From Candidatus Saccharimonadota bacterium (GTDB taxonomy: Bacteria; Patescibacteriota; Saccharimonadia; Saccharimonadales; SLHW01), in contig JBJHDA010000001.1 of NCBI GenBank assembly GCA_050486305.1, forward strand, positions 179,071-243,070: DNA of 64,000 nucleotides. The letters run 5' to 3'. The position numbers were made by a program, and so were the translations under genes. Below are positions 1 through 55,531 of this stretch, one piece after another. Position 1 is the stretch's first letter, and each line of letters starts with the position of its first letter. Under the pieces are notes generated by a model that was not told the DNA's origin, made no database searches, and saw only the letters and a program-made list of their open reading frames with translations.

Positions 1-748
1 TGCGGTCGAAAAGTGTAATTATAAACTCTGCTCCGCTTGGGTTGTCCCTGTTGTAGTGTGCGCTAATATCGCATTGCTTCACTGACTCGTCAGGTAAAGT
101 GATCCGAACCCTTTCCCAATAGTAAGTACTCGTTACTTTGTTTTTCTGACACTCCTCTATCCATACGCCGAGGGTTTTTTCACTCGGGAATTCCATTCGT
201 ATCGTGTCTTCAAGGGATTTGCCAAATAGCTGACCTGACTCTAGGCCACAGTAAGCGATGCCTGATTCGCTCGCATTCGTGACGTTACGCTGACTATTCA
301 ATACGTACAACGGCAACGGTAAATGATTAACGACGTTGATTGCCTGGATGAGAGAATCGCGTCGATCCTGATCTTCGCTGCTATTTGCGCCTTCTTGGCT
401 CGCAAGCTGGTAGATCTGCAGCGCCATACTGTTAACAAGTTCGTGTCCGGTCCGCACTACCTCAAGGTTTGGCGGTGTTGATTGGTTCTGCTCATGGTTC
501 GGTGCAACGTGTAGAATAGCTTGCGTCAATGCGTTTATCGGTTCAAGGACGGTTCGTGTCAATAGTTCACTGACGACCAGACAAAAACTGATAATACCGG
601 CAAAAACAAGTATGATGCCGATGAATGAATCGATAATATTTTGCTCAAACAATAAATACCACAGAAAAACGGATACGATTCCGACGGAAAGAAGCCCGAT
701 AGTAATTTGGCTGTATACCTGAGCTTTCAGTTTTTTGGAGTGGTCCAT
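1..748 (-). CDS. Membrane-anchored sensor protein, N-terminal part (gene continues beyond left edge); probably a sensor histidine kinase
   Basis: Stop-free frame from ATG (746-748) to the window edge; absent from the ORF track because it is truncated. Hand translation MDHSKKLKAQVYSQITIGLLSVGIVSVFLWYLLFEQNIIDSFIGIILVFAGIISFCLVV... gives two hydrophobic helices, then a linker and a PAS-like soluble region. The kinase core is not in the window. Confidence 0.4.
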   Translation of the reverse strand, partial: MDHSKKLKAQVYSQITIGLLSVGIVSVFLWYLLFEQNIIDSFIGIILVFAGIISFCLVVSELLTRTVLEPINALTQAILHVAPNHEQNQSTPPNLEVVRTGHELVNSMALQIYQLASQEGANSSEDQDRRDSLIQAINVVNHLPLPLYVLNSQRNVTNASESGIAYCGLESGQLFGKSLEDTIRMEFPSEKTLGVWIEECQKNKVTSTYYWERVRITLPDESVKQCDISAHYNRDNPSGAEFIITLFDR

Positions 749-761
749 GCAACCATTATAC

Positions 762-1982
762 TTATGGTTTTACAGAAATCTGATTTTCGTTTGTAGCTAG
801 TGTTATCCAGGTTTGCCCAGGGTTTAATCCGAGAGGAGAACCGTTTTCATCCCCAAAACGTATGTTTTCTTTTTTATTTCGCTTTTCCCAGGTGCCTTTT
901 GTGAGTGTGCCGTCCTGGAATATATACGCGGTTCCGCTGCCAATCGACCGGTATACGGAATATATACCGTCTCGGCTGTGATTTGCGACCATAACAACGA
1001 CAACGTCCGAGGAAATTTGCTTATTTGTTCGTTCATCTACATGAGGCGTACCACCCATAAATCGTTTGTATGTATTCGTTTTGCCATCATAGACAAATCG
1101 CACATTGTAAAGCGGTGATGATATGCGCACCTCCACTTCTTTGGCATCTGGCGAGTCGGATGGCTCGGCATCTTTCCGTGCAAAGCCAGTGTAAGAACTA
1201 CTGTTATAGCCTCGTTTATCATGCACCTTTAGTAGTGAGTTGCGATCGGAGTACATATTGTGTGGAGCGAATCGGGTATTGACGCGTCTATATGCTTCAG
1301 GATTTGCAAACTGGTCTAAATCTTTAACGTTTTCGTTGCGGATTCGGCTAAGGGCATACGGGCTTCCACCCACATGTGCGATCGCTGCATCAAAACCAAG
1401 TACCCAGTCTACATGATTTCTTCTAACAGATCGGATTGGTCCGATATGTTCTGGCTTTTGCTCTTGGTATAGTGCCAGAAAACGAGTAATACTACCTTCA
1501 ACCATTGCCTCAAAGACGACGCCTGCGTCTTGCAGCCCAGATTGCGGCCGAGCATCAGGACTATTTTCGATAACAACAGCAGTAACAGGGAGTTCTGCGA
1601 GCTCAGGCTCTACTTGCATGCCAGTAAGGTTTGATGCGACGGTTGTTGGCTCTGGCTCTGGCTCAGGTTCTGGCTCAACAATAGCTGGCGCTGGCGGTGG
1701 TGGTGCTGGCTTGAGCAAGAAATACAAGCCGCTCGCTGTCCCGACGAGCAGCCCTGCCGCGATTGCAACGATAATAATCTTTTTGTTTTTGCTCGCAGAG
1801 CTCCAGAATTCCCGTATCCACTTAATCGGGTTTCTGGTTCGGGCTTTTTTTGGTTTTGGCGGCACAGAGACAATCGGCTGCACGATATGATTCTCGGGCT
1901 TGTCTGGTTTGGGTGCTGGAGTCAGTTGTGAATGGTTCATGGTTCTATTGCTTCGTTGAGGAGGTTTTATGTCGTCCATCAT
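762..1982 (-). CDS. DUF3048 (YerB-like) domain protein with N-terminal TM anchor and Pro/Glu linker
   Basis: 406-aa ORF. TM helix IIIVAIAAGLLVGTASGLYFLL, linker PPPPAPAIVEPEPEPEPEP, then NSPDARPQSGLQDAGVVFEAMVEGSITRFLALY, which resembles the DUF3048 family. Confidence 0.7.
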   Translation of the reverse strand: MMDDIKPPQRSNRTMNHSQLTPAPKPDKPENHIVQPIVSVPPKPKKARTRNPIKWIREFWSSASKNKKIIIVAIAAGLLVGTASGLYFLLKPAPPPPAPAIVEPEPEPEPEPTTVASNLTGMQVEPELAELPVTAVVIENSPDARPQSGLQDAGVVFEAMVEGSITRFLALYQEQKPEHIGPIRSVRRNHVDWVLGFDAAIAHVGGSPYALSRIRNENVKDLDQFANPEAYRRVNTRFAPHNMYSDRNSLLKVHDKRGYNSSSYTGFARKDAEPSDSPDAKEVEVRISSPLYNVRFVYDGKTNTYKRFMGGTPHVDERTNKQISSDVVVVMVANHSRDGIYSVYRSIGSGTAYIFQDGTLTKGTWEKRNKKENIRFGDENGSPLGLNPGQTWITLATNENQISVKP

Positions 1983-2016
1983 TATTGCTAGCGCCTATTG
2001 TAGCAGAGCCTACGCG

Positions 2017-3459
2017 CTATAAAAGTGCATTTATTTGCGCTTGAATACGCTTGAGGGTCGTTTCTTTTCCTAGTAAAGCCAGTGTTTCAGATAAGCCCGG
2101 CGAGGCAGACGCTTGGGTCGTGGCGATTCGTATAAGACTAAAAAGTACAACAGGCTTTTCTTCTGTGCTTTCCAGTAACTGATTAAGCGCAGCAGTTATC
2201 GTGTCAGTATTGAACGGCTCTGTGTCCGCGAGTGATTGACTGGCTTTGGTGAGCAAGTCGATAAGTTTCTCTGACGGGTAGTTTTTTAGCTTTTTATGAC
2301 TGGAAATCAGGGCTAGGTCGACAGGCCTATCTTTGTAGAAAAAATCGGTTAACTCGGGTATTTCTGAAAGGAATTTCAGGCGTTCTTGGATAACTTTGAG
2401 AACAGCCTTATTATATGATTCATCACGATTCTGAGCAGCCTCAGGCAAATGATTTTTACCGATGTCATACAGTTCGTCCAAGGTGAGGTTGCGAATGAAG
2501 TTACCATTTATCCAGCGAAGTCGCTGCTGGTCAAAAACCGCACCGCCTTTCCCTACTCCGTTCAGCGAGAAAGATCGTATTAACTCATCTTTTGTGAAGA
2601 TTTCTTTTGTTGTGCCATCATTCCAGCCAAGCGTTGCAATGAAGCTCACGAGTGCCTCCGGCAGGAAGCCCTCCCGCAAATAATCAAGAATATCGGTAGC
2701 ACCGTCCCGCTTGCTCAGCTTCTTTTTACCATCAGGGCCAAGAATCGGGGGCATGGTTGCCATAATTGGTGGGGTTATGTCGAGTGCCTCGTATAAATTA
2801 AGATAGTTTGGTACGCTTGCGATAAATTCCTGTCCTCGGATGACGTGACTGATCTTCATTTCATGATCGTCGATAATGTGCGCGAAATTATAGGTAGGAT
2901 AACCATCCGACTTAATAAGAATAAAGTCGTCAATTACTTCCGGTCCGGTTGACAGTTCGCCCATTACTTCATCATGCCAGTTATAGGATTTCGGATTGGA
3001 GGTAAATCGTAACGGTGTATTCCCGTCCCACTCAGGAGGATTGTTCGGGCGGTGGTTACGGTATAGGAATGGTTTTTTTGCCTTTTTAGCATCTTCCCGT
3101 AATTGCTGGATCTCTTCTGGTGTATATGGGTCTGCGTATGCCCTGCCTTGTTGGATAAGCTTCTCGGCCCAATGCATGTAGCGATCTAAACGCTCGCTTT
3201 GACGGTACGGACCAGCCGGACCGCCAATATCTGGACCTTCATCATGCTCAATGCCGAGAGCCTGTAAGCTGGTAATTATATGCTGCTCTGCATCTTCCAC
3301 TTCACGTTTTTTGTCAGTATCTTCAATACGAAGCACAAAAGTGCCGTCATGTTTTCTGGCAACAAGCCAGGCAAATAGAGCTGTTCTTGCAGCGCCTACG
3401 TGCAATAAGCCTGTTGGGCTTGGGGCAAATCGTGTTCTTACCGTATTAGTCTTTGACAT
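2017..3459 (-). CDS. gltX: Glutamyl-tRNA synthetase
   Basis: 480 aa. N-terminus RTRFAPSPTGLLHVGAARTALF (HIGH-type motif), KLSKRDG (KMSKS-type motif), class I GluRS length. Confidence 0.95.
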   Translation of the reverse strand: MSKTNTVRTRFAPSPTGLLHVGAARTALFAWLVARKHDGTFVLRIEDTDKKREVEDAEQHIITSLQALGIEHDEGPDIGGPAGPYRQSERLDRYMHWAEKLIQQGRAYADPYTPEEIQQLREDAKKAKKPFLYRNHRPNNPPEWDGNTPLRFTSNPKSYNWHDEVMGELSTGPEVIDDFILIKSDGYPTYNFAHIIDDHEMKISHVIRGQEFIASVPNYLNLYEALDITPPIMATMPPILGPDGKKKLSKRDGATDILDYLREGFLPEALVSFIATLGWNDGTTKEIFTKDELIRSFSLNGVGKGGAVFDQQRLRWINGNFIRNLTLDELYDIGKNHLPEAAQNRDESYNKAVLKVIQERLKFLSEIPELTDFFYKDRPVDLALISSHKKLKNYPSEKLIDLLTKASQSLADTEPFNTDTITAALNQLLESTEEKPVVLFSLIRIATTQASASPGLSETLALLGKETTLKRIQAQINALL

Positions 3460-3524
3460 TACAATTATCTATATTACTAGGTTAGTGACTGAATGCACAC
3501 ATGTGAGTGCTAGCAGCCAAGTTG

Positions 3525-4586
3525 CTAGAGGCTGTCAACAATCCGCAGAAGCTGATCGCTGCTTAATGAAGAGGCGCCCTCGATGTTGTACCAAATTCCG
3601 CCATCCACCCAGGTCGCATTGCTTCCATTATATATGTAGATAGTCTTGCCTTTGCTTGTTACCGTTTGGTAGAGGCCTTTGTCTTCAACGAAGTTATTTT
3701 TTAGTGCGTCGCTTGTCCAGTCGGTCGATCGCTTTTTTATTTGGAAGTTTCGGTGATCTGTGAGCGATTCATATTGCAGCGCAACGTGTCCAGGGCTGTA
3801 CTCTACCGACCTATTTAGTTGGAATCCAGACGGCTTGTAGGCCGGTATTGAGGCTGCAACCCCCGAGCGATTTGCAGCGAGCTGGACGGATACGACTGGA
3901 GCAAACGCATAGCCAAGAAACGCCAGGCCGCCGAAAACTACCAGTGCGGCAAGAGTATACTTTGTTTTTGCAGAGGCTCCTTGCAGTCGTTCAACACCGC
4001 GCATAATGAAGCCTTTTTTCGGCTCAAAAGCTTCTTCGTGGCCAGTCGCATATTCGAGGGCTCGCTCAGTAATTGAGGTAGGGTTTTCTGTCTTGTGTGT
4101 GTGTTGCTTTTGGCTTGTCGGTTGCGACTGGGTTGGCGCCTTTGTCTTATTTAGAGCAGAGTTATGTGTCGGGTGTAGCTGTTTTTTCGGGCCTGTGGTT
4201 GCATGTGTTGTTTGAAATTTTTTTACGGCAGTGCTTTTAGCGGCCTTAGCTGCTCGTTCAATCCGAGCAAAATTTGTGCTCGGTCGTGGCTGGAGTAAAT
4301 CCTTTTTTTTAGGTGTTTCTTGGGAAAGGTTCGGCTTTGATACGGCGGACCGCATCAGTGTTTTTGATTTTTCCAGTGGTTTTTTTGGTCTAGTTTGCGC
4401 TTGGCGGTTTGTGATCGATGATTTTTTATAATGAAAGTCCATACTCGAATATGCTTTATTCTGACTCTCTTGGCTAGGCTTTCTAGGTGACGATTGGCTC
4501 GTTTCACTGGGCTGCTTCATTGAGATAAGCTTGCCAGTTCTGACATCATAGGTATTGCCATTAAGCTCAATTATATTTTTTGTCAT
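3525..4586 (-). CDS. Hypothetical single-pass membrane protein; low-complexity N-half, C-terminal globular domain (DUF4367-like by eye)
   Basis: 353-aa ORF. Lys/Ser/Thr/Pro/Gln-rich N-half, TM helix YTLAALVVFGGLAFLGYAFAPVV, C-terminus ...TWVDGGIWYNIEGASSLSSDQLLRIVDSL. Confidence 0.5.
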   Translation of the reverse strand: MTKNIIELNGNTYDVRTGKLISMKQPSETSQSSPRKPSQESQNKAYSSMDFHYKKSSITNRQAQTRPKKPLEKSKTLMRSAVSKPNLSQETPKKKDLLQPRPSTNFARIERAAKAAKSTAVKKFQTTHATTGPKKQLHPTHNSALNKTKAPTQSQPTSQKQHTHKTENPTSITERALEYATGHEEAFEPKKGFIMRGVERLQGASAKTKYTLAALVVFGGLAFLGYAFAPVVSVQLAANRSGVAASIPAYKPSGFQLNRSVEYSPGHVALQYESLTDHRNFQIKKRSTDWTSDALKNNFVEDKGLYQTVTSKGKTIYIYNGSNATWVDGGIWYNIEGASSLSSDQLLRIVDSL

Positions 4587-4710
4587 TTTATTTCTTCACA
4601 ATCTCCTGGCCATGCTTGGGATAGCTTAATCACTATCTTATCGTTTATTTGCAAATGTAACAAGATATTTGAAATAAGATTATTCAACAGCGTATACTTA
4701 CCATGCACCT

Positions 4711-6213
4711 ATGGATTATTTAGACCCGGATAAAAAACGTAAACACACCTATCGTTTGTTCATTGGCTATGCGCTGATGGCTGTTGTTATTGGTCTGGGT
4801 ACAATTATTCTCGCGCTGATGGCGTATGGATACACATTTGATCGGTCACAGCGCACCGTTATACAAAACGGTTTGCTGTTCGTAGATATGGGGCCGGTGA
4901 ATGCAGACGTATATATTAATGGCGATTTGCGGGGTCGCGGAAACCAGCGGCTCGTTCTGCCAGCGGATAATTACACGATCGAAATTAGGGAGGAAGGTTA
5001 CCGCACATGGCAAAAAGACATTCGTTTAGCCGGTGGTACGGTCGAGAGGTTTACGTACCCGGTACTGTTTCCGAATGAGCTTAGCCGGTCCACCTACCGT
5101 ACGTTCAAGAGTGAGCCTCAGCTGATTACGACAAGTCCGGATAGGCGATGGATGCTTATACAGGAGTCTCGGGAAATTGATGCATTTGTCTTATATGATT
5201 TACGGCAACAGATAAATCTGCCTACATTCTTTTCGCTGCCATCCGGGGTTATGAGCAGTGATGCTGAGGATAGCACACTCGAGCTTGTTGAATGGTCGAA
5301 CGACAACGAGCATCTGATACTCCGGCACTCTTTTAGGGGTGGACAGGAGTATATCTTGCTAAATCATAACGAGCCAAATACCAGCCAAAATCTTTCAACA
5401 CGATTCTCTGATATTCCGTTTACGAATATCTCACTCATAGACAAAGAGCCTGACGCCTACCACTTATTTAACAGCAATACAGGGGACCTGATACAGGCCG
5501 AACTTGCCGAGGAAGAAACAGAACTCATTCTTGAGGACGTGCTCACGTATCGCTCGCACGGATCGGATAGGATTTTGTATGTATCAAGTGTTCCATTGCC
5601 GACGGAGGAAAACAATGATGCTCGTTACGGCATTTACCTGTATGAAGATGAAGATTCCTACCAGATTACTTCCCTGCCCGCCGGCGAAAGCTCCGATTAC
5701 TTACTTGACCTTGCCCGCTTTAGCGGTTCTTGGTATGTCGTAGTCGGCAATGCAACTGAGGGTCGTTCGATTATTTATAAGGATCCGCTTGAGGCGCTAA
5801 ATCGTAACGGCCAGAGAGCACTTCTACCACTTTTTACATTACGTACAGCCTCGAACCCGGAACGTGTGGCATTTTCTGCCAACGCTCGAAATATAAAAAT
5901 GCAAGCTGGACATGAAATTGCGGTGTTTGATCTGGAGCGGGAGCGTTCTTATCGGTATTCACTAGAGAACGAAGACGTATCTCCAGCCAGCTGGATGGAC
6001 GGACATCGGATAACTGCTGTGCTCGGTAATGTACTTTCGGTTACTGATTTTGATGGAGAAAATCGCCATGAACTTATCCCGTGCAGAGATGAGCACCCGC
6101 CGTTGTTTGATCCTAACTACGAGTACTTGTACTGTGTGGCGCCTTCAAGCGATGGGGACGGTTACGGAGCCCTTATTCGCGCAGCTTTGACAGCAGCGGA
6201 TCAGGATGATTAA
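4711..6213 (+). CDS. PEGA domain-containing membrane-anchored protein
   Basis: 500 aa. N-terminal TM (LFIGYALMAVVIGLGTIILALMAY), then DVYINGDLRGRGNQRLVLPADNYTIEIREEGYRTWQKDIRL, a PEGA-type beta-sandwich pattern, followed by a long C-terminal beta-rich region. Confidence 0.65.
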   Translation: MDYLDPDKKRKHTYRLFIGYALMAVVIGLGTIILALMAYGYTFDRSQRTVIQNGLLFVDMGPVNADVYINGDLRGRGNQRLVLPADNYTIEIREEGYRTWQKDIRLAGGTVERFTYPVLFPNELSRSTYRTFKSEPQLITTSPDRRWMLIQESREIDAFVLYDLRQQINLPTFFSLPSGVMSSDAEDSTLELVEWSNDNEHLILRHSFRGGQEYILLNHNEPNTSQNLSTRFSDIPFTNISLIDKEPDAYHLFNSNTGDLIQAELAEEETELILEDVLTYRSHGSDRILYVSSVPLPTEENNDARYGIYLYEDEDSYQITSLPAGESSDYLLDLARFSGSWYVVVGNATEGRSIIYKDPLEALNRNGQRALLPLFTLRTASNPERVAFSANARNIKMQAGHEIAVFDLERERSYRYSLENEDVSPASWMDGHRITAVLGNVLSVTDFDGENRHELIPCRDEHPPLFDPNYEYLYCVAPSSDGDGYGALIRAALTAADQDD

Positions 6214-46527: not shown

Positions 46528-46548
46528 ACCCTGTAAAATTTATACTAT

Positions 46549-46575
46549 TGGCTCCGCGTACTGGTCTAGAACCCA
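46549..46575 (-). other. tRNA 3'-half-like fragment (possible degenerate att repeat of tRNA-Asn 3' end)
   Basis: Minus-strand TGGGTTCTAGACCAGTACGCGGAGCCA: T-loop-like TTCTAGA, 7-nt acceptor strand, discriminator G, CCA. About two-thirds of positions match the last 27 nt of the tRNA-Asn at 55457..55531, in the same orientation. No 5' half is present. Confidence 0.35.
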
Positions 46576-46616
46576 TAAACAGGGGTAAAGTGAGACAAAT
46601 GAGACACCTGTGGCTA

Positions 46617-48215
46617 CTATTTGATATTTTTGCCCGTAAAGACGATTAATCGCGATCGTGCTCTTGTCATGCCTACAAGTAGCGCCTCCTCTTTGTCTTC
46701 TTTAGAGAAAACGTCGGTACATATTACGACTTTACTATCGAGGCCTTTTAAGTCGTAGGCATTGCCGTTGATTATCGAGTTTGATTTCTCGAATTTTTCC
46801 CACTCTACATCCCTGACCAAAGTAAACGTTACACCGTCTTTTAGCTTAGTGTTTTTCCTATTTCTTTCTGACATTACGCTTGTAGAGTGTTTTGAGATGC
46901 TGACAACCATGATTTCCCTAGGCGCAACCCCAGACTTAAGTAGTTCATTTATTTTGCCTACTACTTCTTGGGGGTACTTGCTATAGTCCACGTTTATTCC
47001 TTTATACGGAATTTTATGTATCTCAGGTTCTATACCAAGAGGATTTCGCCTTACTTTACCTACTCGTAATGGTGTCATTTTTCTAATGTAGGCATTTATG
47101 CTGGCGCTGTTTCGATAGTTGTATTTCAGGGGATATAAAACGACATCGTCTCTTTTTATTAACTGTTCTAGCGTGCTCCTCTCACTTCTTCCAAATGTAT
47201 CTTGGTTCAGGTCAATATAAATTCTGAATCTACCGCTAATAAAGCCACCATTGAGATAACCTTCTAGAGTTTTTATTTCATCATTATTTAAATAATCTTG
47301 AGCCTCATCCAATATTAAGTAATCATATTTATCATGGTCTACGCTGAGCATTGTTGTTGTCGTAACATGAACGTATTTTGGTTTATGGTTTAATCTTGCA
47401 GTTACATCGAAGGCAACTTTGTTCCTGATAGCTCGATTGAAGCAAACATAAAGTGTCTTTACGCCAGCTTTTTCATTTTCCACTAGCTGCTCGACGGCCA
47501 GTATAGTTTTACCCGAGCCAGGTGGACCTTCTACAACCATCCTTTTTACAGCTGCTAGAGCATCAAATGCAATATTTTGTTCCTCGCTTAATAACAATAC
47601 TTTTTCGTCGACAGCAGAGCTAATATCCCTTATATAGTCCTTATAATTAGGAACTAATATTTCTTTGATCTTTTCCTGAGTGTTATCTGAGAGGGAACGA
47701 TGTCCTCCGAAGCGATTTTGAGTATAAGCTATAAGTCTACTCACGTATTTTCGTGGATTAAGCATAAAACCTGTATCGAAATATTGCTCTATGTCCCATG
47801 CTGTATCGGGTGCTTTGTTTAGCTTGTACTCCGGGAATGCACATGCATAATGACCAAGTGGATTTTGTTCGAGCGCAACTCCTCTACTCTGCAAGAAGCG
47901 CCAAAGCCCATAGAAGTTACTTTTAGCTTGACCAAAGGGGTCTATTTTGTGCTGACTACCCCAGTGATCTTTCGTATACCAGATTCCATCTTCTATCGAG
48001 ATTTCACCACCCTTAACTTCTAGTACGTATATGCCAGCAGACCCCACAAATACAAAATCAATTTCGCGGTCTTGCCCTCTATTTGGTGTAAAGGAGCAGC
48101 TTGCGACTACAAAACTAATCTTGCCCTTTAGCTCAGAAGATCTGACCGTTTCGAGCACACTCAATACTTCTTTTTCTACTGAAGGCATGCGTTTCTGAGT
48201 GCCGTATACAATCAT
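46617..48215 (-). CDS. NERD-domain nuclease fused to SF1 (DUF2075/UvrD-like) helicase; Nhi-like
   Basis: 532 aa. NERD pattern REIDFVFVGSAGIYVLEVKGG, Walker A GPPGSGKT, Walker B YLILDEAQDY, C-terminal helicase motif LLVGMTRARSRLIVF. Confidence 0.8.
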   Translation of the reverse strand: MIVYGTQKRMPSVEKEVLSVLETVRSSELKGKISFVVASCSFTPNRGQDREIDFVFVGSAGIYVLEVKGGEISIEDGIWYTKDHWGSQHKIDPFGQAKSNFYGLWRFLQSRGVALEQNPLGHYACAFPEYKLNKAPDTAWDIEQYFDTGFMLNPRKYVSRLIAYTQNRFGGHRSLSDNTQEKIKEILVPNYKDYIRDISSAVDEKVLLLSEEQNIAFDALAAVKRMVVEGPPGSGKTILAVEQLVENEKAGVKTLYVCFNRAIRNKVAFDVTARLNHKPKYVHVTTTTMLSVDHDKYDYLILDEAQDYLNNDEIKTLEGYLNGGFISGRFRIYIDLNQDTFGRSERSTLEQLIKRDDVVLYPLKYNYRNSASINAYIRKMTPLRVGKVRRNPLGIEPEIHKIPYKGINVDYSKYPQEVVGKINELLKSGVAPREIMVVSISKHSTSVMSERNRKNTKLKDGVTFTLVRDVEWEKFEKSNSIINGNAYDLKGLDSKVVICTDVFSKEDKEEALLVGMTRARSRLIVFTGKNIK

Positions 48216-48315
48216 TGTCCTGGTATCATATCACGCGTGTGTTGTTCATTAACTTCGACAATTAAGCAACTAGCTTGTATTGTTTATGTTCGAGTTGTCC
48301 AAGATCTCTTAATGG

Positions 48316-49533
48316 CTATGTCTTGGAAAGATTACTGATTAATGCATCTATTATGAGCTTAATGCCGTGCCAGTCCTGCTCCTTGATTAAGTTATTATTC
48401 TTTTGCGCTGATTTTAGCTTATCTTTGAACGCTTGCTGTATCTTCGATTTCTCAAGGAGCTCCCCTTGATACTTACCAAGTTTATTCATGTACCCAGTCC
48501 ACTGGACTTGCCTGAATTCGCCTTTAGTGTTTTTGAGGGTATCTTCACCAAGGTAAAGTTCAATTGCTCCAGCCAGTCCGTTAATGTTCATTTTTGCGTT
48601 TCCATTGGGGCCTATTGTCGGATAGTTATTGGCCAATTCAATGTCAGGATAATGCATAACTCTGTAGTTTGCAGGCAGTGAGAATGTTTTTAACGCTGAA
48701 GTAGCCTCATGTGCAGCTGAATCATTATCAAAAATCGCTATAATCCTGTTTGATATGCCTGCTGCAGCAAAGCTTTTCAATGTTTTGACCAAAGCACTAG
48801 CTCCGCCTTCAGTTTTATAGTTAGTGTCAAGAAATTTAATATAGTTTGTGAGGTGTGGGTATAGAAGCTCAATCGACTCTTTCAGGACCCTACGATCAAA
48901 GACTCCTTCAGTAAGAACGATTGGCGGGGAGCTATATCGCTGCATATTACCTGCGGCCTCACCAAATTCAACCATGGAATCGTCATACCAGCCTTCATAG
49001 GCAAACTCGCTTACATCTAAAGTTACGTTTGACATGTCGTCAATATTTTTTAGGCTGTAATAGAGTGCAAAACAGGAATCATACTCTAGGATATCTAAAA
49101 GTTTTGTCTTATTCTCTTCAGAAAGCCTTTTATTGCCGTTATAGGAGCTTAAAAGCTCGCTAATCTGACGATTCTTTTCCGAATAGTATTCTTTTAAGAG
49201 TTTATCGTTAACGGAAGGGGCCCTTTCTAGCTCGTAGCCAGCAACCTCCTGAAGAAAAAGCCTAAAGGTTTCTTCGCTGTAGCCGAGCACATTCAAGCGC
49301 TCTTTTAGCTCCTTCGCCCTCCTAGCAAAAAACATAATAGAGAAGTTTTCTCCATCATCCTCATAGTCTTTATACGCATTTAATTTTCTATCTTTGATGA
49401 TGTTTATAGCTTCGTCGCCAGAGGCTTTAATGATGTCGTCTTTGCTAAATAGGCTCATTATCGAATAGTCTAAGTCATTCCGCCATTGGAACACCTCTTT
49501 ATCGTCTACATATAGATAAGCAAACACACTCAT
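48316..49533 (-). CDS. Toprim/DUF4435-like putative nuclease with unknown ~190-aa N-terminal domain
   Basis: 405 aa, ATGA overlap with the upstream gene. The C-terminal half has PPIVLTEGVFDRRVL (Toprim Glu) and RIIAIFDNDSAAHEA (DxD). No P-loop. Confidence 0.55.
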   Translation of the reverse strand: MSVFAYLYVDDKEVFQWRNDLDYSIMSLFSKDDIIKASGDEAINIIKDRKLNAYKDYEDDGENFSIMFFARRAKELKERLNVLGYSEETFRLFLQEVAGYELERAPSVNDKLLKEYYSEKNRQISELLSSYNGNKRLSEENKTKLLDILEYDSCFALYYSLKNIDDMSNVTLDVSEFAYEGWYDDSMVEFGEAAGNMQRYSSPPIVLTEGVFDRRVLKESIELLYPHLTNYIKFLDTNYKTEGGASALVKTLKSFAAAGISNRIIAIFDNDSAAHEATSALKTFSLPANYRVMHYPDIELANNYPTIGPNGNAKMNINGLAGAIELYLGEDTLKNTKGEFRQVQWTGYMNKLGKYQGELLEKSKIQQAFKDKLKSAQKNNNLIKEQDWHGIKLIIDALISNLSKT

Positions 49534-50705
49534 AAGTTAGCCCTATTCGATTTTTTGCTTAAAGGAGTGCGGTTTTTTTTGACGATTTTCTTTTTATTAT
49601 CGAGGATCAGTTTTTTCAGGTCTTCTTCAGATTCATACGCCTTTATTCGACCATTTAGGTACCCGAGTCGGTATGAAATACCGTCGCTCATAAGGCGCCA
49701 ATTGGTTTCTTGCAGGATATCGTTGACTAGCTTCTTTAAGGTTTTCCTGCTGTCGTAATCGGCTCGATCTGATTTACTGTCTAAGCAGCTGAAGCCTACA
49801 CGTACATCTTGTCCAATCTCTGGTTTATCGAGGGTAAACTCAATATACCCCGCTTCTTCAAGTGGTTCAGATAGTAGTGGTATCAGTTCAGCAATCTTTG
49901 GTTTTTTTATCTCTTTTACTGCGTCGTATATATGCTTGTTGTCTCGCTTTTCCTTCATCTCCTCGCCTAGTCGTGCCATAGTTTCGAAATCTCGTGTTAT
50001 TTTGAAGAGTCGCTCTCGGAATTCTTTGTCTTCGAGACAAAAATGATACCGGTCTTTATCGAAATCGGGGTCAGGCTTCTCTTCCCTACTTGAATAGCTC
50101 ATCTTCTCTTTAAAGCTATGACTGCAGTTAGTGCATGAGTATGTGATTGTGATTGATTTTTTGGTCTTGCTTGTTTTATGTGTCACCTCACTCTGACATT
50201 TCGGGCAAAGGGACGGCTTTACTTCCCGTGCTTCTCCGTCTTCCCAAAAAGCGCTGTTTTTCTCGCAGTGTTGACACCGAAGCATAAATAAAACTTCTTC
50301 GGGGTCGTCAAAATCGTATTCTTCGCCTCGGTGCATGAGAGATTTATCGATGATTCGCATCCCCTTCTTGTTGCAATGGCGGCAGTACGGTTCTTCCGAT
50401 AGTCGCGCGTTAGCTATCTGCTCGTCCTTCGCTTCGTCGCGAGCCATCCAATCATTGATTGTGTTTTCACGTTGTTCATAGCGGCGAAGCAACTTATTGC
50501 CGACCGTTTCCATGTAGAAGATATTCACCAAGAACGCATTGCCTGGCCTATCGATTTTCTCATTTTTGGGTAGTTTACTTTTAAATTCAGAGCAGAATTT
50601 ATCGTAATAAGCCTTGCCACGGCGAGCAGCATCGACAGTCAATCTGTCGTAGAGATATTCATAATGATGGCGTTCTTTTAAGTGCATATATACGTGAACA
50701 ATCAA
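49530..50705 (-). CDS. Double zinc-ribbon protein, unknown function
   Basis: 391 aa (TTG at 50705, or ATG at 50687). Four CxxC pairs: CRHC...CQHC and CPKC...CTNC. Charged helical C-terminal half. No NTPase motif. Abuts the effector stop codon. Confidence 0.6.
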   Translation of the reverse strand: MIVHVYMHLKERHHYEYLYDRLTVDAARRGKAYYDKFCSEFKSKLPKNEKIDRPGNAFLVNIFYMETVGNKLLRRYEQRENTINDWMARDEAKDEQIANARLSEEPYCRHCNKKGMRIIDKSLMHRGEEYDFDDPEEVLFMLRCQHCEKNSAFWEDGEAREVKPSLCPKCQSEVTHKTSKTKKSITITYSCTNCSHSFKEKMSYSSREEKPDPDFDKDRYHFCLEDKEFRERLFKITRDFETMARLGEEMKEKRDNKHIYDAVKEIKKPKIAELIPLLSEPLEEAGYIEFTLDKPEIGQDVRVGFSCLDSKSDRADYDSRKTLKKLVNDILQETNWRLMSDGISYRLGYLNGRIKAYESEEDLKKLILDNKKKIVKKNRTPLSKKSNRANL

Positions 50706-51224
50706 CTACATAAGATAAAGCCAGCTGAGTGAAACTGCTGCTGATGCTCCTCCAATAACGAAAAGCATCAGCGCATCATTAAAATGCTGGTGCTTGTTCG
50801 TAGCGATACACGCAGATACATGGACTTGAGAAAGCAGTTCCTCTTCATAGGCTTTACTCGTCAACGTCTTCATTTTCTTTTTATACGAAGTAAATGGCAT
50901 TTCTTTGATGTGGTTAAAGTACGTTAGTGATAACTGATCTTCAGTAATAGACTGCCCCTTGTTAGACAAACTCGAGCGTAAAGACCGCAAACACTTAAGT
51001 AGGCCGTATATCAAAAAAATATAAGCGAGCGTAATTAGTATCACTAGCAGGATTCCGACGTCCAGGTATTTTTCAGAGAGTTGCTGTAAAAAAAGTGGGG
51101 TAACGAATGCCATGAAGGCGCCCTGGAGAGCAAAAAATATTCCTAATTTTTGATCGACTGCTCTTATCCACTCGTGAATACGAGCTAGGTTCTTTTCGTA
51201 TACAGCAACTTTATCAAATGTCAT
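50706..51224 (-). CDS. Pycsar-type transmembrane effector-like protein (3 TM)
   Basis: 172 aa, ATGA overlap with the cyclase gene. N-terminus ARIHEWIRAVDQKLGIFFALQGAF (the x-D-x-K-then-TM pattern recalled for Pycsar TM effectors), two central TM and one C-terminal TM. Confidence 0.6.
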   Translation of the reverse strand: MTFDKVAVYEKNLARIHEWIRAVDQKLGIFFALQGAFMAFVTPLFLQQLSEKYLDVGILLVILITLAYIFLIYGLLKCLRSLRSSLSNKGQSITEDQLSLTYFNHIKEMPFTSYKKKMKTLTSKAYEEELLSQVHVSACIATNKHQHFNDALMLFVIGGASAAVSLSWLYLM

Positions 51225-52057
51225 GACAGCATACCGTCCTGTACTTTATCTTTACATATGTCGCACCATAGTCCTGGTGCGTAATAAACCCTATCATCTT
51301 TAATATCATCGTTAGTACTAGTGTCAAAGCTTTGCCACAATTCTGAGTCGGGTTGTGGGTTTCCTGCTAGGTCATGACCGCAATGCATAATCGCATACCT
51401 ATGCTTTGTGTTGAGTGCTCTATAGGTAGCTTCCGAGATTACTAGCATTGAACCTTTGGTTGGGTCAAAATACCTATCAACCTCGTAGATGTCTTTAGAT
51501 AATGATGCGACTTTTGCTGCGTTATTTATCAAGCGCCCCGCCCAAACTTCATTATTGTTGCGCGGTCCTCTTTTGCCCATTCGTTTAACAAGCAGTTTAT
51601 CGATACTTATTCCTGCCTTGAAGTTAAATACATGTTGCTCATCTTGGAATTTTGGCCTGATATGTTTTCGGAAAAAACTACTGAAGGTTAACGCAGCAAC
51701 TAAAGCGCGAAAAGGTGCATCTTCTCCTTCAAAAATTCCAAATGCACCGTCTCCCTTGATGTCTATATATTCAGCTTCAATGCCTTCGAGCGAAAGAACA
51801 TCTATCAGCGTTTGAGTGAAGTAATCATAAATTTTTGCCATTGTTTTAGAGTGTTTTTTGTAAGACATCTTCGAGGAACGATCAAGATCAATAAATAAGC
51901 AAACAAACTTTTCATCACCGCCTACCCATACTGGCGATTCAAGATATGATTCTTCATAGATTCGCTTTATAGAACTTATTTCTTCGATGCGAAAATTATC
52001 GTATCGATATTCTGCTTTGTTTTTTAAGTCTTTATTGATATCGTCGATTGGTTTCAT
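51221..52057 (-). CDS. Class III nucleotide cyclase-like protein (Pycsar PycC-like candidate)
   Basis: 278 aa. FVCLFIDLDRSS (metal Asp strand), IDIKGDGAFGIFEG (K-x-GD), NEVWAGRLINNAAKVAS (G-x-x-V/I-N-x-A-x-R/K-like). Cys/His-rich C-terminus HCGHD...WCDICKDK. Confidence 0.6.
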   Translation of the reverse strand: MKPIDDINKDLKNKAEYRYDNFRIEEISSIKRIYEESYLESPVWVGGDEKFVCLFIDLDRSSKMSYKKHSKTMAKIYDYFTQTLIDVLSLEGIEAEYIDIKGDGAFGIFEGEDAPFRALVAALTFSSFFRKHIRPKFQDEQHVFNFKAGISIDKLLVKRMGKRGPRNNNEVWAGRLINNAAKVASLSKDIYEVDRYFDPTKGSMLVISEATYRALNTKHRYAIMHCGHDLAGNPQPDSELWQSFDTSTNDDIKDDRVYYAPGLWCDICKDKVQDGMLS

Positions 52058-52070
52058 ACTAGTCCTTTAG

Positions 52071-52703
52071 CTATATAGTATTCCTTGATGGTCCTGTTAG
52101 CACCTGAACCACCCTCCCTACAATCACTGCGTCCGACTGATCTTCTTCGTGAAGAAAAATAGGGCCAAAATCTTCGGAGGATTCTGAAATTAAGGCAACT
52201 TGATTGTTCAGTGGGTCTGGGTAGAACTTTTTTATATTCGCCATCCCATCGACAACAGCAACGACGTAGTCACCCTCGACTGGCTGGAATGACTTGCTGT
52301 CAACTACGACAAAGTCACCATCATTTATTGGCTCGCCTTGTACTCTTGCCCTATTCATAGACATGCCTTTGGCCCTAAGAGCGAAAAGATCGGTTCGATT
52401 GTTTGTTCGTAAAAGCTTAGAGGATACTTTTAGGTGTCCTTGAACTCTTTCATCTGCAAATATGTCAGCAGGACCACAGTTAGCTGAACCTACTATAGGT
52501 ATAGCCACGAGCTCAAAATTTCTGTTTGTGTTTTCCGCCATACCGTATGAGAGCATAAAACCTTTAGCCTTCAGCTTGTCAAGGTGATATTTAATAATCT
52601 GAGGACTCTTAGCTCCGACTTTTTCTGCTAGTTCACTCAAACTGTAACGTTCGATGCTTTCTTCCCTCGCTATATTAAGTAGCTTTTCCTGTATTCTATG
52701 CAT
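52071..52703 (-). CDS. LexA/S24-family repressor-peptidase (wHTH + S24 domain)
   Basis: Trimmed to MHRIQEKLLNIAREE...LSELAEKVGAKSPQIIKYHLDKLKAKGF (wHTH). C-terminus LRAKGMSMN (Ser) ...GDFVVVD...VAVVDGMANIKKF (Lys). Confidence 0.75.
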   Translation of the reverse strand: MHRIQEKLLNIAREESIERYSLSELAEKVGAKSPQIIKYHLDKLKAKGFMLSYGMAENTNRNFELVAIPIVGSANCGPADIFADERVQGHLKVSSKLLRTNNRTDLFALRAKGMSMNRARVQGEPINDGDFVVVDSKSFQPVEGDYVVAVVDGMANIKKFYPDPLNNQVALISESSEDFGPIFLHEEDQSDAVIVGRVVQVLTGPSRNTI

Positions 52704-52709
52704 ATATCG

Positions 52710-52718
52710 ATTATAACA
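52710..52718 (-). promoter_or_regulatory. Extended -10 (TGtTATAAT) 6 nt upstream of the repressor ATG; leaderless-type promoter
   Basis: The minus strand reads TGTTATAAT-CGATAT-ATG. Confidence 0.45.
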
Positions 52719-52892
52719 CAGTAAAGTTTTACGAACGTTGTACATAAAACTATTTTAAAACTACAACTCGTAGCGTATAGTGCAGACATCAGGACGCTAT
52801 ATGTGTGGTCTTGAAATAAAAATTAATGCGAAAGCAAAGGCAAACAAGTATTTACTCTATGCGTTGGCCTTTCAATATAAGGAGGGTACGTT

Positions 52893-53222
52893 ATGTACCA
52901 AAAATTACAAAATATAAACAAGAACAATGACAGGAATACTACGCCTTTTTTGACCAGGCTTGTCGTTTGGCAGAAATCGGCTGTAGTGCCTGGGTTAAAC
53001 CCATCCACCTGGCGAAAAGATCCTTGCGGTGCTTTGATGAGATGGGATCTTTACGGTGATACAACTCCAGGCGGTTTTGGCTGGGAGGTTGACCATAGGA
53101 TTCCGATTGCTGGTGGCGGCGGAAACAGTATTGCCAATCTTCAGGCACTTCAGTGGCAAAATAATCGAAGCAAAGGTCGCAGTAGTTCACAGGGTTACTG
53201 CGTCATTACCTACAGGAGCTGA
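52893..53222 (+). CDS. HNH endonuclease
   Basis: 109 aa. Strong SD AAGGAGGG. WEVDHRIPIAGGGGNSIANLQALQWQNNRSKG (H-N-N/H pattern). Confidence 0.75.
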   Translation: MYQKLQNINKNNDRNTTPFLTRLVVWQKSAVVPGLNPSTWRKDPCGALMRWDLYGDTTPGGFGWEVDHRIPIAGGGGNSIANLQALQWQNNRSKGRSSSQGYCVITYRS

Positions 53223-53224
53223 CC

Positions 53225-53689
53225 ATGTCAAAAGTAAAAAAGTCAAAAACGAATGTGGCAGGCCTCAGCGCTGTTTACAGTGGCGTACTGCAAAACCTAT
53301 CAATGATGCAGTCTGCCGACAATGCCATAGAATCAAAAGCCAGTGGTGTCGTTGCTTTTTCATTAACAGCCATTGCGTTATTGGTAAGCAATATCCAGGA
53401 GTGGCATCTTATTGCTGTATCAAGCTTATTCATTTTGATCGCAGCACTTTATTTGGGTGTTTGGTGTCTGCGTATACGAAATTACCGTAGCGCAACCGTT
53501 GTCTTTGAGGATAATCCCGATTATTTCAGCAAAGACAGCGAACAGCTCGTGAAGCAATTAATATCAGATGCTGAAGGAGCTAACACCGATGCGTCAGCCA
53601 TTCTTGATAAAAAATCATTAGCTTTCCGGCGGGCGCTTATATTATTCGTGGTCGGTACTTTAGTCGGTATATTTTCACTTAATTTTTAA
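53225..53689 (+). CDS. 3-TM protein resembling the Pycsar-type effector at 50706..51224
   Basis: 154 aa, starts 2 nt after the HNH stop. Same layout as the effector: polar N-terminus with D-x-x-x-x-K, two TM, CLRxxxxRS after TM2 (WCLRIRNYRS vs KCLRSLRS), C-terminal F-x-x-AL-x-LFV-x-G TM. Confidence 0.5.
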   Translation: MSKVKKSKTNVAGLSAVYSGVLQNLSMMQSADNAIESKASGVVAFSLTAIALLVSNIQEWHLIAVSSLFILIAALYLGVWCLRIRNYRSATVVFEDNPDYFSKDSEQLVKQLISDAEGANTDASAILDKKSLAFRRALILFVVGTLVGIFSLNF

Positions 53690-53713: not shown

Positions 53714-53854
53714 ATGTCAGAAAAATCACCAAAGCAGAATCCCCTACCGAAGCCGAACAAGACTCGTGTATACAAAGGCACAGGAAGGCCAGCCGTGCGG
53801 CAACCACTTCCGCCACCTAATCGGACTAGACCATATCGTAAGGGCTTGAGGTAA
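53714..53854 (+). CDS. Possible 46-aa basic Pro-rich micro-protein
   Basis: Below the ORF-track cutoff. AAGGAG 5 nt upstream of the ATG. Translation MSEKSPKQNPLPKPNKTRVYKGTGRPAVRQPLPPPNRTRPYRKGLR. Confidence 0.3.
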   Translation: MSEKSPKQNPLPKPNKTRVYKGTGRPAVRQPLPPPNRTRPYRKGLR

Positions 53855-53866
53855 TCATTCACACCT

Positions 53867-54310
53867 ATGGCGGCACCGAAGGTAAGAAGAATTCTAAAGC
53901 GTTTATTGCAAGATCCTGAATTTCAGGAGTTATCTGCCAAGGCTCAGGCTGATCCGAAGAACGTAAAGCAATACGTCATGCAGGCTCGAAAGAGATTCAA
54001 TCTATCACCCTACTGGGAAATTTTACTCGAACATATCCTAATACTCGGTAGTTTTAACGAAAAAATTTTACACAGCGGCTTAGCGATCGAGCGCAGTCAT
54101 GACCCTGTCACAGGTCGCGAATACTTTAAGATCGTCGTCTTCCCGGAAACAACACAAAAAGAAGTAGTTGCTACATACGGTCGCATTACAAAGCAGTATC
54201 AGCAAAGCGAGCAAACTATTGATGTGCGCTCAGCCAAACGTGATGAAGTCGAGTATCGTGCGCTCCAGCTTCATTTAAAAGGAAAAAACAAGGCACATCA
54301 AGCGTGGTAA
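53867..54310 (+). CDS. Hypothetical protein
   Basis: 147-aa ORF with no recognisable motif. Confidence 0.45.
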   Translation: MAAPKVRRILKRLLQDPEFQELSAKAQADPKNVKQYVMQARKRFNLSPYWEILLEHILILGSFNEKILHSGLAIERSHDPVTGREYFKIVVFPETTQKEVVATYGRITKQYQQSEQTIDVRSAKRDEVEYRALQLHLKGKNKAHQAW

Positions 54311-54758
54311 CTGGGGCTCGAAGCAGTTTGCCTTCAAGGGTCTTCTCAAATGCGGCAGCTGTGGTGCTGATGTCATTGGTGAGGAAAAGTTCAAAAGACT
54401 AAAAAGCGGTGATGTGAATCGTCATGTGTACTATCGCTGTACTAAGCGAAAAGATCCGAATTGCCCAGAGCGATATATCAACGAAAAAGTATTATGCGAA
54501 ACGCTGATGCAATTTATAGAGAAAGAAGCCGATAATTTGGATATAAGCAGTTCCCTGCGTGCAAAGGTAGAGCAACACACGGAAGCCACACGGTCATTGC
54601 TTGACCATTATAGTGTGAAGGTCAGCCTAGCCAACCCTTTGAGCGAATACGCCCGCTATGTACTCACAAAAGGCATCGAAAAGGATAGGCATGAGCTGGC
54701 CAAGGGCATACAGCAACGGCTTCTATTCAAGAACGGGAAGTTAAAGATCAAAGGCTAA
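54279..54758 (+). pseudogene. Truncated large serine recombinase (only zinc-ribbon + coiled-coil C-terminal part)
   Basis: The frame is open from 54279 (TAA at 54276). Reads ...KRGNWGSKQFAFKGLLKCGSCGADVIGEEKFKRLKSGDVNRHVYYRCTKRKDPNCPERYINEKVL..., the recombinase zinc beta-ribbon pattern. The resolvase catalytic and recombinase domains are missing, and there is no ATG before the GTG at 54414. Confidence 0.6.
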
Positions 54759-55435: not shown

Positions 55436-55456
55436 ACCTCTGTTGATGCTGAGTTT

Positions 55457-55531
55457 GGCTCCCGGGGCCGGACTCGAACCGGCAACCTATGCGTTAACAG
55501 CGCACCGCTCTACCATTGAGCTACCCGGGAA
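55457..55531 (-). tRNA. tRNA-Asn (anticodon GUU), CCA encoded
   Basis: Reverse complement TCCCGGGTAGCTCAATGGTAGAGCGGTGCGCTGTTAACGCATAGGTTGCCGGTTCGAGTCCGGCCCCGGGAGCCA. Anticodon loop CT-GTT-AA; clean cloverleaf. Confidence 0.95.

Follow-up and report, generated by a model that had tools for sequence, protein, structure and literature searches.

We analyzed a 64,000-nucleotide (nt) stretch of a Candidatus Saccharimonadota genome (contig JBJHDA010000001.1, positions 179,071 to 243,070; hereafter the window), and here describe a predicted membrane protein of 154 amino acids (aa) that it encodes at 53225..53689 on the forward strand. The protein is a distant member of the superfamily of three-transmembrane (3-TM) proteins that includes the Pycsar effector PycTM, and its gene is followed by a gene for a conserved basic micropeptide. 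With moderate confidence, we favor a reading in which the two form a cyclase-independent effector of the PycTM/SpdB3 superfamily and its partner, their genes occupying a variable cargo slot in a decayed integrative element, with the small HNH nuclease gene directly upstream as a passenger. An earlier sequence-only reading of this DNA had treated the HNH and membrane protein genes as one coupled module; that coupling is not conserved, and it is the pair of 3-TM protein and micropeptide that is modestly novel.

The gene layout in the sequence-only reading is accurate. The HNH open reading frame (ORF) occupies 52893..53222 on the forward strand (109 aa; ATG at 52893, TGA at 53222) and is preceded by a strong Shine-Dalgarno (SD) sequence, AAGGAGG, that ends 6 nt upstream of the ATG. 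The gene for the membrane protein (hereafter the TM protein) has its ATG at 53225, 2 nt past the HNH stop codon, with its own SD sequence, AGGAG, upstream. No terminator-like site lies between the two genes or after them. As described, both genes are divergent from the operon of the PycC cyclase, which lies on the opposite strand.

The TM protein has the 3-TM architecture ascribed to it. Hydropathy analysis places a transmembrane (TM) hairpin at residues 39-86 and a further segment at residues 131-154, and an AlphaFold2 (AF2) model with a predicted local distance difference test (pLDDT) score of 95.5 shows helices at residues 11-56, 62-82, and 105-153. The Pycsar effector of the window, encoded at 50706..51224, has the same 2+1 layout, with TM segments at residues 27-47, 49-82, and 151-172; like PycTM (Pfam PF18967), the TM protein carries a helical cytosolic insert between TM2 and TM3. 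In a direct BLASTP comparison, the two proteins align over their C-terminal 22 residues only, without significance (E = 0.013). Their kinship emerges from profiles: hhalign matched a 111-sequence TM family to an 18-sequence PycTM family, built on the window’s canonical PycTM, with a probability of 92.1% and an E value of 6.3e-7, over 128 columns that cover nearly the full length of both proteins (residues 23-154 versus 11-170). A deep alignment was needed, since a four-sequence alignment and a single sequence each gave a probability of only 20-25%. The resemblance to the cyclase-linked effector that the sequence-only reading noticed is thus real but remote.

The PADLOC models for PycTM agree with this result. 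The TM protein matches model PDLC02364 over nearly its full length (E = 1.8e-4, 19.9 bits), and PycTM models match 77 of the 111 full-length TM-family members, the best at 3e-11. With the Pfam PycTM model, all 111 members fall short of E = 0.01; the TM protein was unmatched in our local search, and its precomputed Pfam PycTM entry is flagged only as “weak”, so that the link depends on PADLOC and the hhalign comparison. A sequence-profile search of the PDB with the TM family returned nothing significant. Overall, these comparisons support placing the TM protein and the PycTM effector in one superfamily, PycTM/pJV1-SpdB3 3TM. PycTM has been described as a 3TM protein of the pJV1-SpdB3 family, and a related protein, EcPucTM, is shown to form a hexameric channel in which each protomer contributes three TM helices (bioRxiv 10.64898/2026.08.12.744502).

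Two of the three motifs that the sequence-only reading had listed as shared between the TM protein and the PycTM effector are indeed kept in both families: a [D/E]-x-K motif before TM1 (E36/K38 in the TM protein, D24/K26 in PycTM), which forms part of a longer shared pattern N-L...[D/E]-x-K, and a C-terminal K-x3-F-x9-G motif in TM3. The third, C-L-R-x4-R-S, is exact in the TM protein only; the spacing in the effector differs (C-L-R-x2-R-S), and C-L-R is conserved in neither family. The cytosolic regions set the two groups apart. An invariant motif, T-E-D-Q-L-S-x-T-x-F-x-H-I, marks this region in the cyclase-linked family; the sub-family of the TM protein lacks it and instead keeps Y...V...Y...L-L-x-Q-L-I-x-D-A-E. 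Close homologues of the TM protein are rare, with only three in a set of 5.8 billion sequences; a profile of these four sequences found 127 representative clusters (50% identity) in a library of 1.84 billion proteins. A search for related loci with the four-sequence alignment found two in genomes; JGI metagenomes and IMG/VR yielded none.

Downstream of the TM gene, a micro-ORF at 53714..53854 on the same strand, with an SD sequence (AAGGAG) 8 nt upstream of its start, encodes a 46-aa peptide, MSEKSPKQNPLPKPNKTRVYKGTGRPAVRQPLPPPNRTRPYRKGLR. The peptide is very basic and proline-rich, with 10 proline, 13 lysine or arginine, and one acidic residue, and contains two repeats of LPxPNxTRxYxKG. Across the family the motif is LPxPNxTRPxKKG, present in one to three repeats. 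Homologues 58-66% identical to the window peptide follow the TM gene directly in five loci (L001, L002, L003, L010, and L011), and in L098 the peptide is 47% identical next to a TM protein that is only 34% identical. Single-repeat peptides are found in L012 (MSENKLPKPRKTRPIKKSE) and L101 (MSEDSPLPQPNKTRPIKKGVV), and a three-repeat peptide in L102. In all, a peptide follows the TM gene in seven of eight independent lineages (the window, L002, the group of L001, L003, L010, and L011, L098, L012, L101, and L102), and it is absent only from the most distant TM lineage, L105. Across the peptide-bearing lineages, identity of the TM proteins drops to ~25%, and an SD sequence precedes the peptide ORF in all of them except L012. 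Synonymous to non-synonymous codon differences in the three closest loci number 9:1, 5:2, and 11:1; because synonymous changes far outnumber non-synonymous ones, we infer that the micro-ORF is coding and under purifying selection. None of the 127 representatives shows the peptide fused to the TM protein.

From this comparative evidence, we take the micro-ORF to be a real, conserved partner of the TM gene. It also distinguishes the sub-family from canonical PycTM loci, the window’s included, which lack such a peptide. The pair is reminiscent of small-protein toxin-antitoxin systems in abortive infection: a potentially toxic membrane protein is tightly linked to a tiny, conserved, co-transcribed partner, and mobile elements and defense islands carry the pair. 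Unlike known antitoxins, the window peptide is proline-rich and basic.

The pairing of HNH and TM genes, by contrast with this TM-peptide pair, is confined to the window. We examined the gene context of ten other TM lineages (L001, L002, L003, L010, L011, L012, L098, L101, L102, and L105), and found an HNH gene upstream of the TM-family gene in none of them. Conversely, a hidden Markov model (HMM) search of 78 loci with HNH homologues (those fetched with a downstream flank of 500 nt or more) found no TM-family or PycTM gene downstream of HNH. Any TM-containing ORF at all follows HNH in only six of these 78 loci, and none is related; in L015, which carries the closest HNH homologue, the downstream 3-TM ORF has another architecture and no HMM match. 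The proposed coupling of the two genes is therefore not supported, and their adjacency is a one-off juxtaposition, not a system.

Other genes take the upstream position elsewhere. In L001, L002, L003, L010, and L011, whose TM proteins are 45-52% identical to that of the window and of which L010 and L011 derive from metagenome-assembled genomes of Candidatus Saccharibacteria, an unrelated 103-aa protein is encoded directly upstream of the TM gene, usually after a DUF2188 gene. No gene lies upstream in L012, and an unknown 135-aa gene does so in L102. In the L098 region 2888..5288, the TM gene lies between an upstream NOV_C/PD-T4-1-like gene and a downstream ThsB_TIR gene, while in L101 (region 1..4465) and L105 (region 3..2182) it overlaps the 3' end of a methyltransferase gene, of type II restriction-modification in L101 and of MmeI-type restriction-modification in L105.

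The commonest upstream neighbor of the TM gene is a family of 103-113-aa proteins with a PPCGIR C-terminus, usually paired with DUF2188 (L001 7179..7490; L002 1998..2309; L010 265..576; L011 7672..7983; L101 4593..4934; L020 2165..2494). By eye, the 103-aa protein has a GIY-YIG-like pattern, G-V-Y-V-I...D-V-G-E-S...R...H...E. This is an unverified lead: the distant L020 relative matches Pfam GIY-YIG at E = 0.03, PADLOC PDC-S14 gives a weak match at 1e-4, the 103-aa protein itself has no Pfam match at E = 0.01, and profile searches of the PDB were negative.

The assignment of the upstream gene as an HNH nuclease holds. Its product scores 20.7 bits against Pfam HNH (E = 4.6e-4), 0.7 bits short of the 21.4-bit cut-off, and relatives of the protein bear the Pfam HNH annotation. 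The family keeps the ββα-Me signature G-W-E-[IV]-D-H...N-L-Q-x-L-Q-W-Q-N-N-R-x-K, with D67-H68, N82, and N90/N91 of the core invariant, and its profile matches the HNH domains of ZRANB3, Cas8f-HNH, and Cas9 in the PDB. At least 244 relatives are found in metagenome contigs, phage contigs among them, and three in viral contigs; members also occur alone in phage contigs and beside integrases. HNH homologues are also encoded close to lysis genes (PG_binding_1 and Peptidase_M15_3) and structural genes in two phage contigs, L007 and L008.

The window HNH shares its ββα-Me motif with stand-alone phage HNH endonucleases, and is 42-56% identical to small HNH proteins of phage and prophage contigs. Unlike stand-alone phage enzymes, it lacks zinc-binding cysteine pairs and a DNA-binding extension, and its gene, like those of L018 and L078, comes first behind a divergent promoter that the repressor presumably controls, rather than lying beside a terminase gene. 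In L078 (2001..6164), an orthologue of the window’s S24 repressor stands opposite an operon comprising HNH, three unknown genes, and a fusion of a ParB-like protein with a DNA methyltransferase. This region looks like an intact phage early region, which gives a hint as to where the HNH gene came from.

Next to the HNH gene on the opposite strand, across a divergent intergenic region of 147 nt (52746..52892) that presumably holds the promoters and operators of both operons, lies a gene for an S24-family LexA/CI-like repressor (52071..52745). The protein combines an N-terminal winged helix-turn-helix domain with an autoprotease (Pfam Peptidase_S24, E = 2.8e-17; LexA_DNA_bind, E = 1.2e-3). Its score of 72.9 bits against TIGR00498 lexA is below the cut-off of 110.95, indicating that it is not the housekeeping LexA. 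The residues that define LexA, CI, and UmuD are in place: an invariant A-N-C-G-P-A with a UmuD-like cleavage site at C90-G91, and a Ser-Lys dyad consisting of the G-M-S-M serine (G127-x-S129-M130) and K172 in an I-K motif. In the intergenic region we found one sigma-70-like site on the forward strand (52754-52781) and two on the reverse strand, no more than expected by chance.

In L001 and L002, orthologues of this repressor (42-43% identity) are transcribed away from the TM cassette, and others stand divergent to HNH in L018 and L078. Between L002 and L018, the S24 proteins share 74% identity, and the first faces the series DUF2188, 103-aa protein, TM protein, and peptide, while the second faces HNH only; nearly the same repressor thus stands opposite different genes, which indicates an exchange of cargo behind one switch. 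Three further loci (L020, L023, and L068) combine HNH, DUF2188, and the 103-aa family in other orders. Taken together, the best reading of these comparisons is that HNH is a swappable, co-transcribed passenger, not a dedicated partner of the TM gene.

A second variable interval lies on the other side of the divergent promoter. The S24 repressor is the first gene of the Pycsar-bearing operon, in which the Pycsar genes are second and third: PycC, a canonical Pycsar cyclase (51221..52057, reverse strand; PADLOC PycC, 1.1e-61), is a neighbor outside the HNH-TM cassette and is followed by the canonical PycTM effector (50706..51224, reverse strand; Pfam PycTM 1.5e-8, above cut-off; PADLOC PycTM 2.2e-30). 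Next comes a gene for a 391-aa Zn-ribbon protein (49530..50705, reverse strand), a backbone gene of the element that is 37-39% identical over ~375 aa to proteins of L001 and L011, where it adjoins the regulator gene. Between repressor and Zn-ribbon genes, the window has Pycsar, L001 has an unrelated unknown 347-aa gene, and L011 has nothing; the L011 regulator is an HTH-Panacea protein instead of S24. This interval looks like a cargo hotspot for defense genes under a DNA-damage-type switch.

The arrangement recalls the immunity region of lambda-type prophages. In lambda cI-rexA-rexB, the CI repressor is flanked by exclusion or abortive-infection genes. As in such regions with their abortive-infection (Abi) genes, an S24-family CI/LexA-like repressor of an integrated element is flanked by membrane-acting genes, here Pycsar in the operon of the repressor itself and the 3-TM gene on the far side of the divergent promoter. 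Unlike in lambda, the window element is decayed and control by the repressor is inferred; RexA and RexB have no sequence relationship to the proteins described here.

As the sequence-only reading noted, only one of the two membrane proteins is linked to a cyclase. PycC of the window is on the opposite strand from the TM gene, in an operon with its own PycTM. A phmmer search with the window PycC as query detected no relative in the TM-family loci outside the window, and by precomputed Pfam lists and PADLOC scans the TM gene has no cyclase neighbor in L001, L002, L012, L098, L101, and L102; L010 and L011 were read as raw ORFs only, and L003 and L105 have very short flanks. Unlike PycTM, then, the TM protein is encoded in an operon without a cyclase, both here and in all relatives examined. 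The suggestion that the family is used in a signal-independent, HNH-linked module thus survives in part: signal-independent use is plausible, since every other locus examined lacks PycC, but the link to HNH is not conserved.

We propose the following mechanism for the cyclase-independent effector and its peptide. By analogy with the hexameric PucTM/PycTM channels, the 3-TM protein would oligomerize to form a membrane pore, which would arrest or kill the cell in abortive infection or superinfection exclusion. The basic micropeptide may replace the cyclic nucleotide as the regulator of the cytosolic helical domain, which carries an acidic L-I-x-D-A-E patch; most likely it would act as a labile, antitoxin-like inhibitor that binds this patch. 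Where the S24 repressor is present, transcription would respond to its RecA-stimulated self-cleavage, probably tying expression of the cassette to DNA damage.

Several observations weigh against this proposal or limit its reach. A fold search with the TM protein model found nothing below an E value of 0.08 in the PDB and BFVD, and the ten contexts sampled come from a family of 127 representative clusters. In five of six lineages checked, the peptide lies in the reading frame of the TM gene behind one or two stop codons, and so could represent an ancestral C-terminal tail or a product of read-through. Its gene also follows that of the membrane protein rather than preceding it, an unusual order for a toxin-antitoxin pair, and any role we assign to the peptide is a guess among inhibitor, activator, and something unrelated. 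The more distant TM loci lack the S24 repressor, and the S24/HNH intergenic region contains no convincing operator palindrome; with no operator identified, control of the TM cassette by S24 stays a proposal. Finally, given the 2-nt spacing and joint expression of the two genes here, a local functional interaction between HNH and TM proteins is conceivable.

The last point could be taken further, with HNH and TM proteins forming a true two-component defense module that needs no cyclic-nucleotide signal. The compact arrangement, in which each gene has its own SD sequence and no terminator intervenes, is consistent with such a module, as is the nature of the upstream gene elsewhere, which is often DNA-acting (NOV_C, a type II methyltransferase, and MmeI, and perhaps the 103-aa protein). 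The adjacency, however, is unique to this genome among the ten other TM lineages and 78 HNH loci, HNH proteins of this family are also encoded on their own in phages and next to integrases, and the same regulator bears either HNH or the TM cassette, which together make this explanation improbable. A broader version of the idea would treat the TM protein and its LPxPNxTRPxKKG peptide as a portable, nucleotide-independent effector cassette that docks behind interchangeable DNA-acting partners, with the peptide as gate or antitoxin. The often DNA-acting character of the upstream gene, whether HNH, NOV_C, methyltransferase, or possibly GIY-YIG-like, keeps this idea in play, and we consider it rather unlikely.

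It is also unlikely, if a serious alternative, that the element uses the TM protein and peptide for its own life cycle, either in holin-like timing of lysis or in an SpdB3-like role in DNA transfer (“spread”). The superfamily is named after the spread protein SpdB3 of Streptomyces plasmid pJV1, the locus lies inside an integrative element beside a CI-like switch, and HNH homologues sit near the lysis and structural genes of phage contigs L007 and L008. Distant TM members, on the other hand, are found in defense-island contexts (L098, L101, and L105) rather than in lysis or transfer modules. Neither an endolysin nor a transfer gene lies beside any of the TM loci examined, and the TM family is unmatched among IMG/VR viral contigs. 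A further alternative, raised by the sequence-only reading, is that one cyclic-nucleotide signal serves two membrane effectors, with the TM protein as a second receptor for the cyclic pyrimidine of the neighboring PycC. Remote PycTM homology extends across the whole protein, including its cytosolic region, and the end of the PycC gene is 836 nt from the HNH start in the same island. Against this, a canonical effector is already part of the Pycsar operon, and the TM sub-family has no cyclase neighbor in any other locus examined. As indirect evidence from a different system, a published test of chimeric Pycsar/Thoeris pairs showed no cross-activation of effectors (PMC13069673). Our comparisons give the shared-signal idea no support either way; it loses likelihood because the second family lacks the invariant motif found in the cytosolic region of the cyclase-linked proteins, and we assign it a low probability.

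The genes discussed here are part of an island of low GC content (0.39-0.43 across ~46-55.5 kb, compared with 0.45-0.50 in the flanks). Beyond the micro-ORF, on the same strand as the TM gene, 53867..54310 encodes a 147-aa protein seen in this genome only, with no family match and no homologue in any fetched locus. It is followed by a remnant of a serine recombinase gene (54312..54734, forward strand; tblastn), which corresponds to the C-terminal third of the protein and is 37% identical to residues 321-458 of the L002 recombinase (E = 4e-21); the N-terminal catalytic part is absent from the remnant, and L002 carries an intact large serine recombinase gene. A tRNA-Asn gene (55456..55530, reverse strand; ARAGORN; Rfam, 72.7 bits) marks the right edge of the island, past the remnant. 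The window element is a decayed integrative element that has probably become immobilized. We considered a tRNA-like stretch at ~46545-46590 as a left att repeat, but it shows no significant similarity to tRNA-Asn, leaving the left border of the island undefined. The same island also encodes, at 46617..49533 on the reverse strand, a 532-aa NERD-helicase (PADLOC RTasNERD-Hel, 4e-33) and a 405-aa protein with weak matches to HEPN/Toprim-N (Pfam, 4e-4) and AriAB (PADLOC, 5e-5).

PycTM-type 3-TM proteins are known as receptors for cyclic nucleotides made by an adjacent cyclase. A sub-family of 127 clusters (50% identity) whose sampled loci contain no cyclase, and usually contain a micropeptide, points to a second route of control for a pore-forming scaffold. 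If the TM protein and its peptide do travel as a portable cassette, they would represent an undescribed class of defense module, derived from a Pycsar effector and rewired away from cyclases. Phage defense in Saccharibacteria is poorly known, and the locus illustrates how accessory and defense genes are shuffled behind a LexA/CI-like switch in mobile elements of bacteria that are probably members of this group. Moreover, the TM protein and its peptide may offer a simple two-gene system for studying effector gating.

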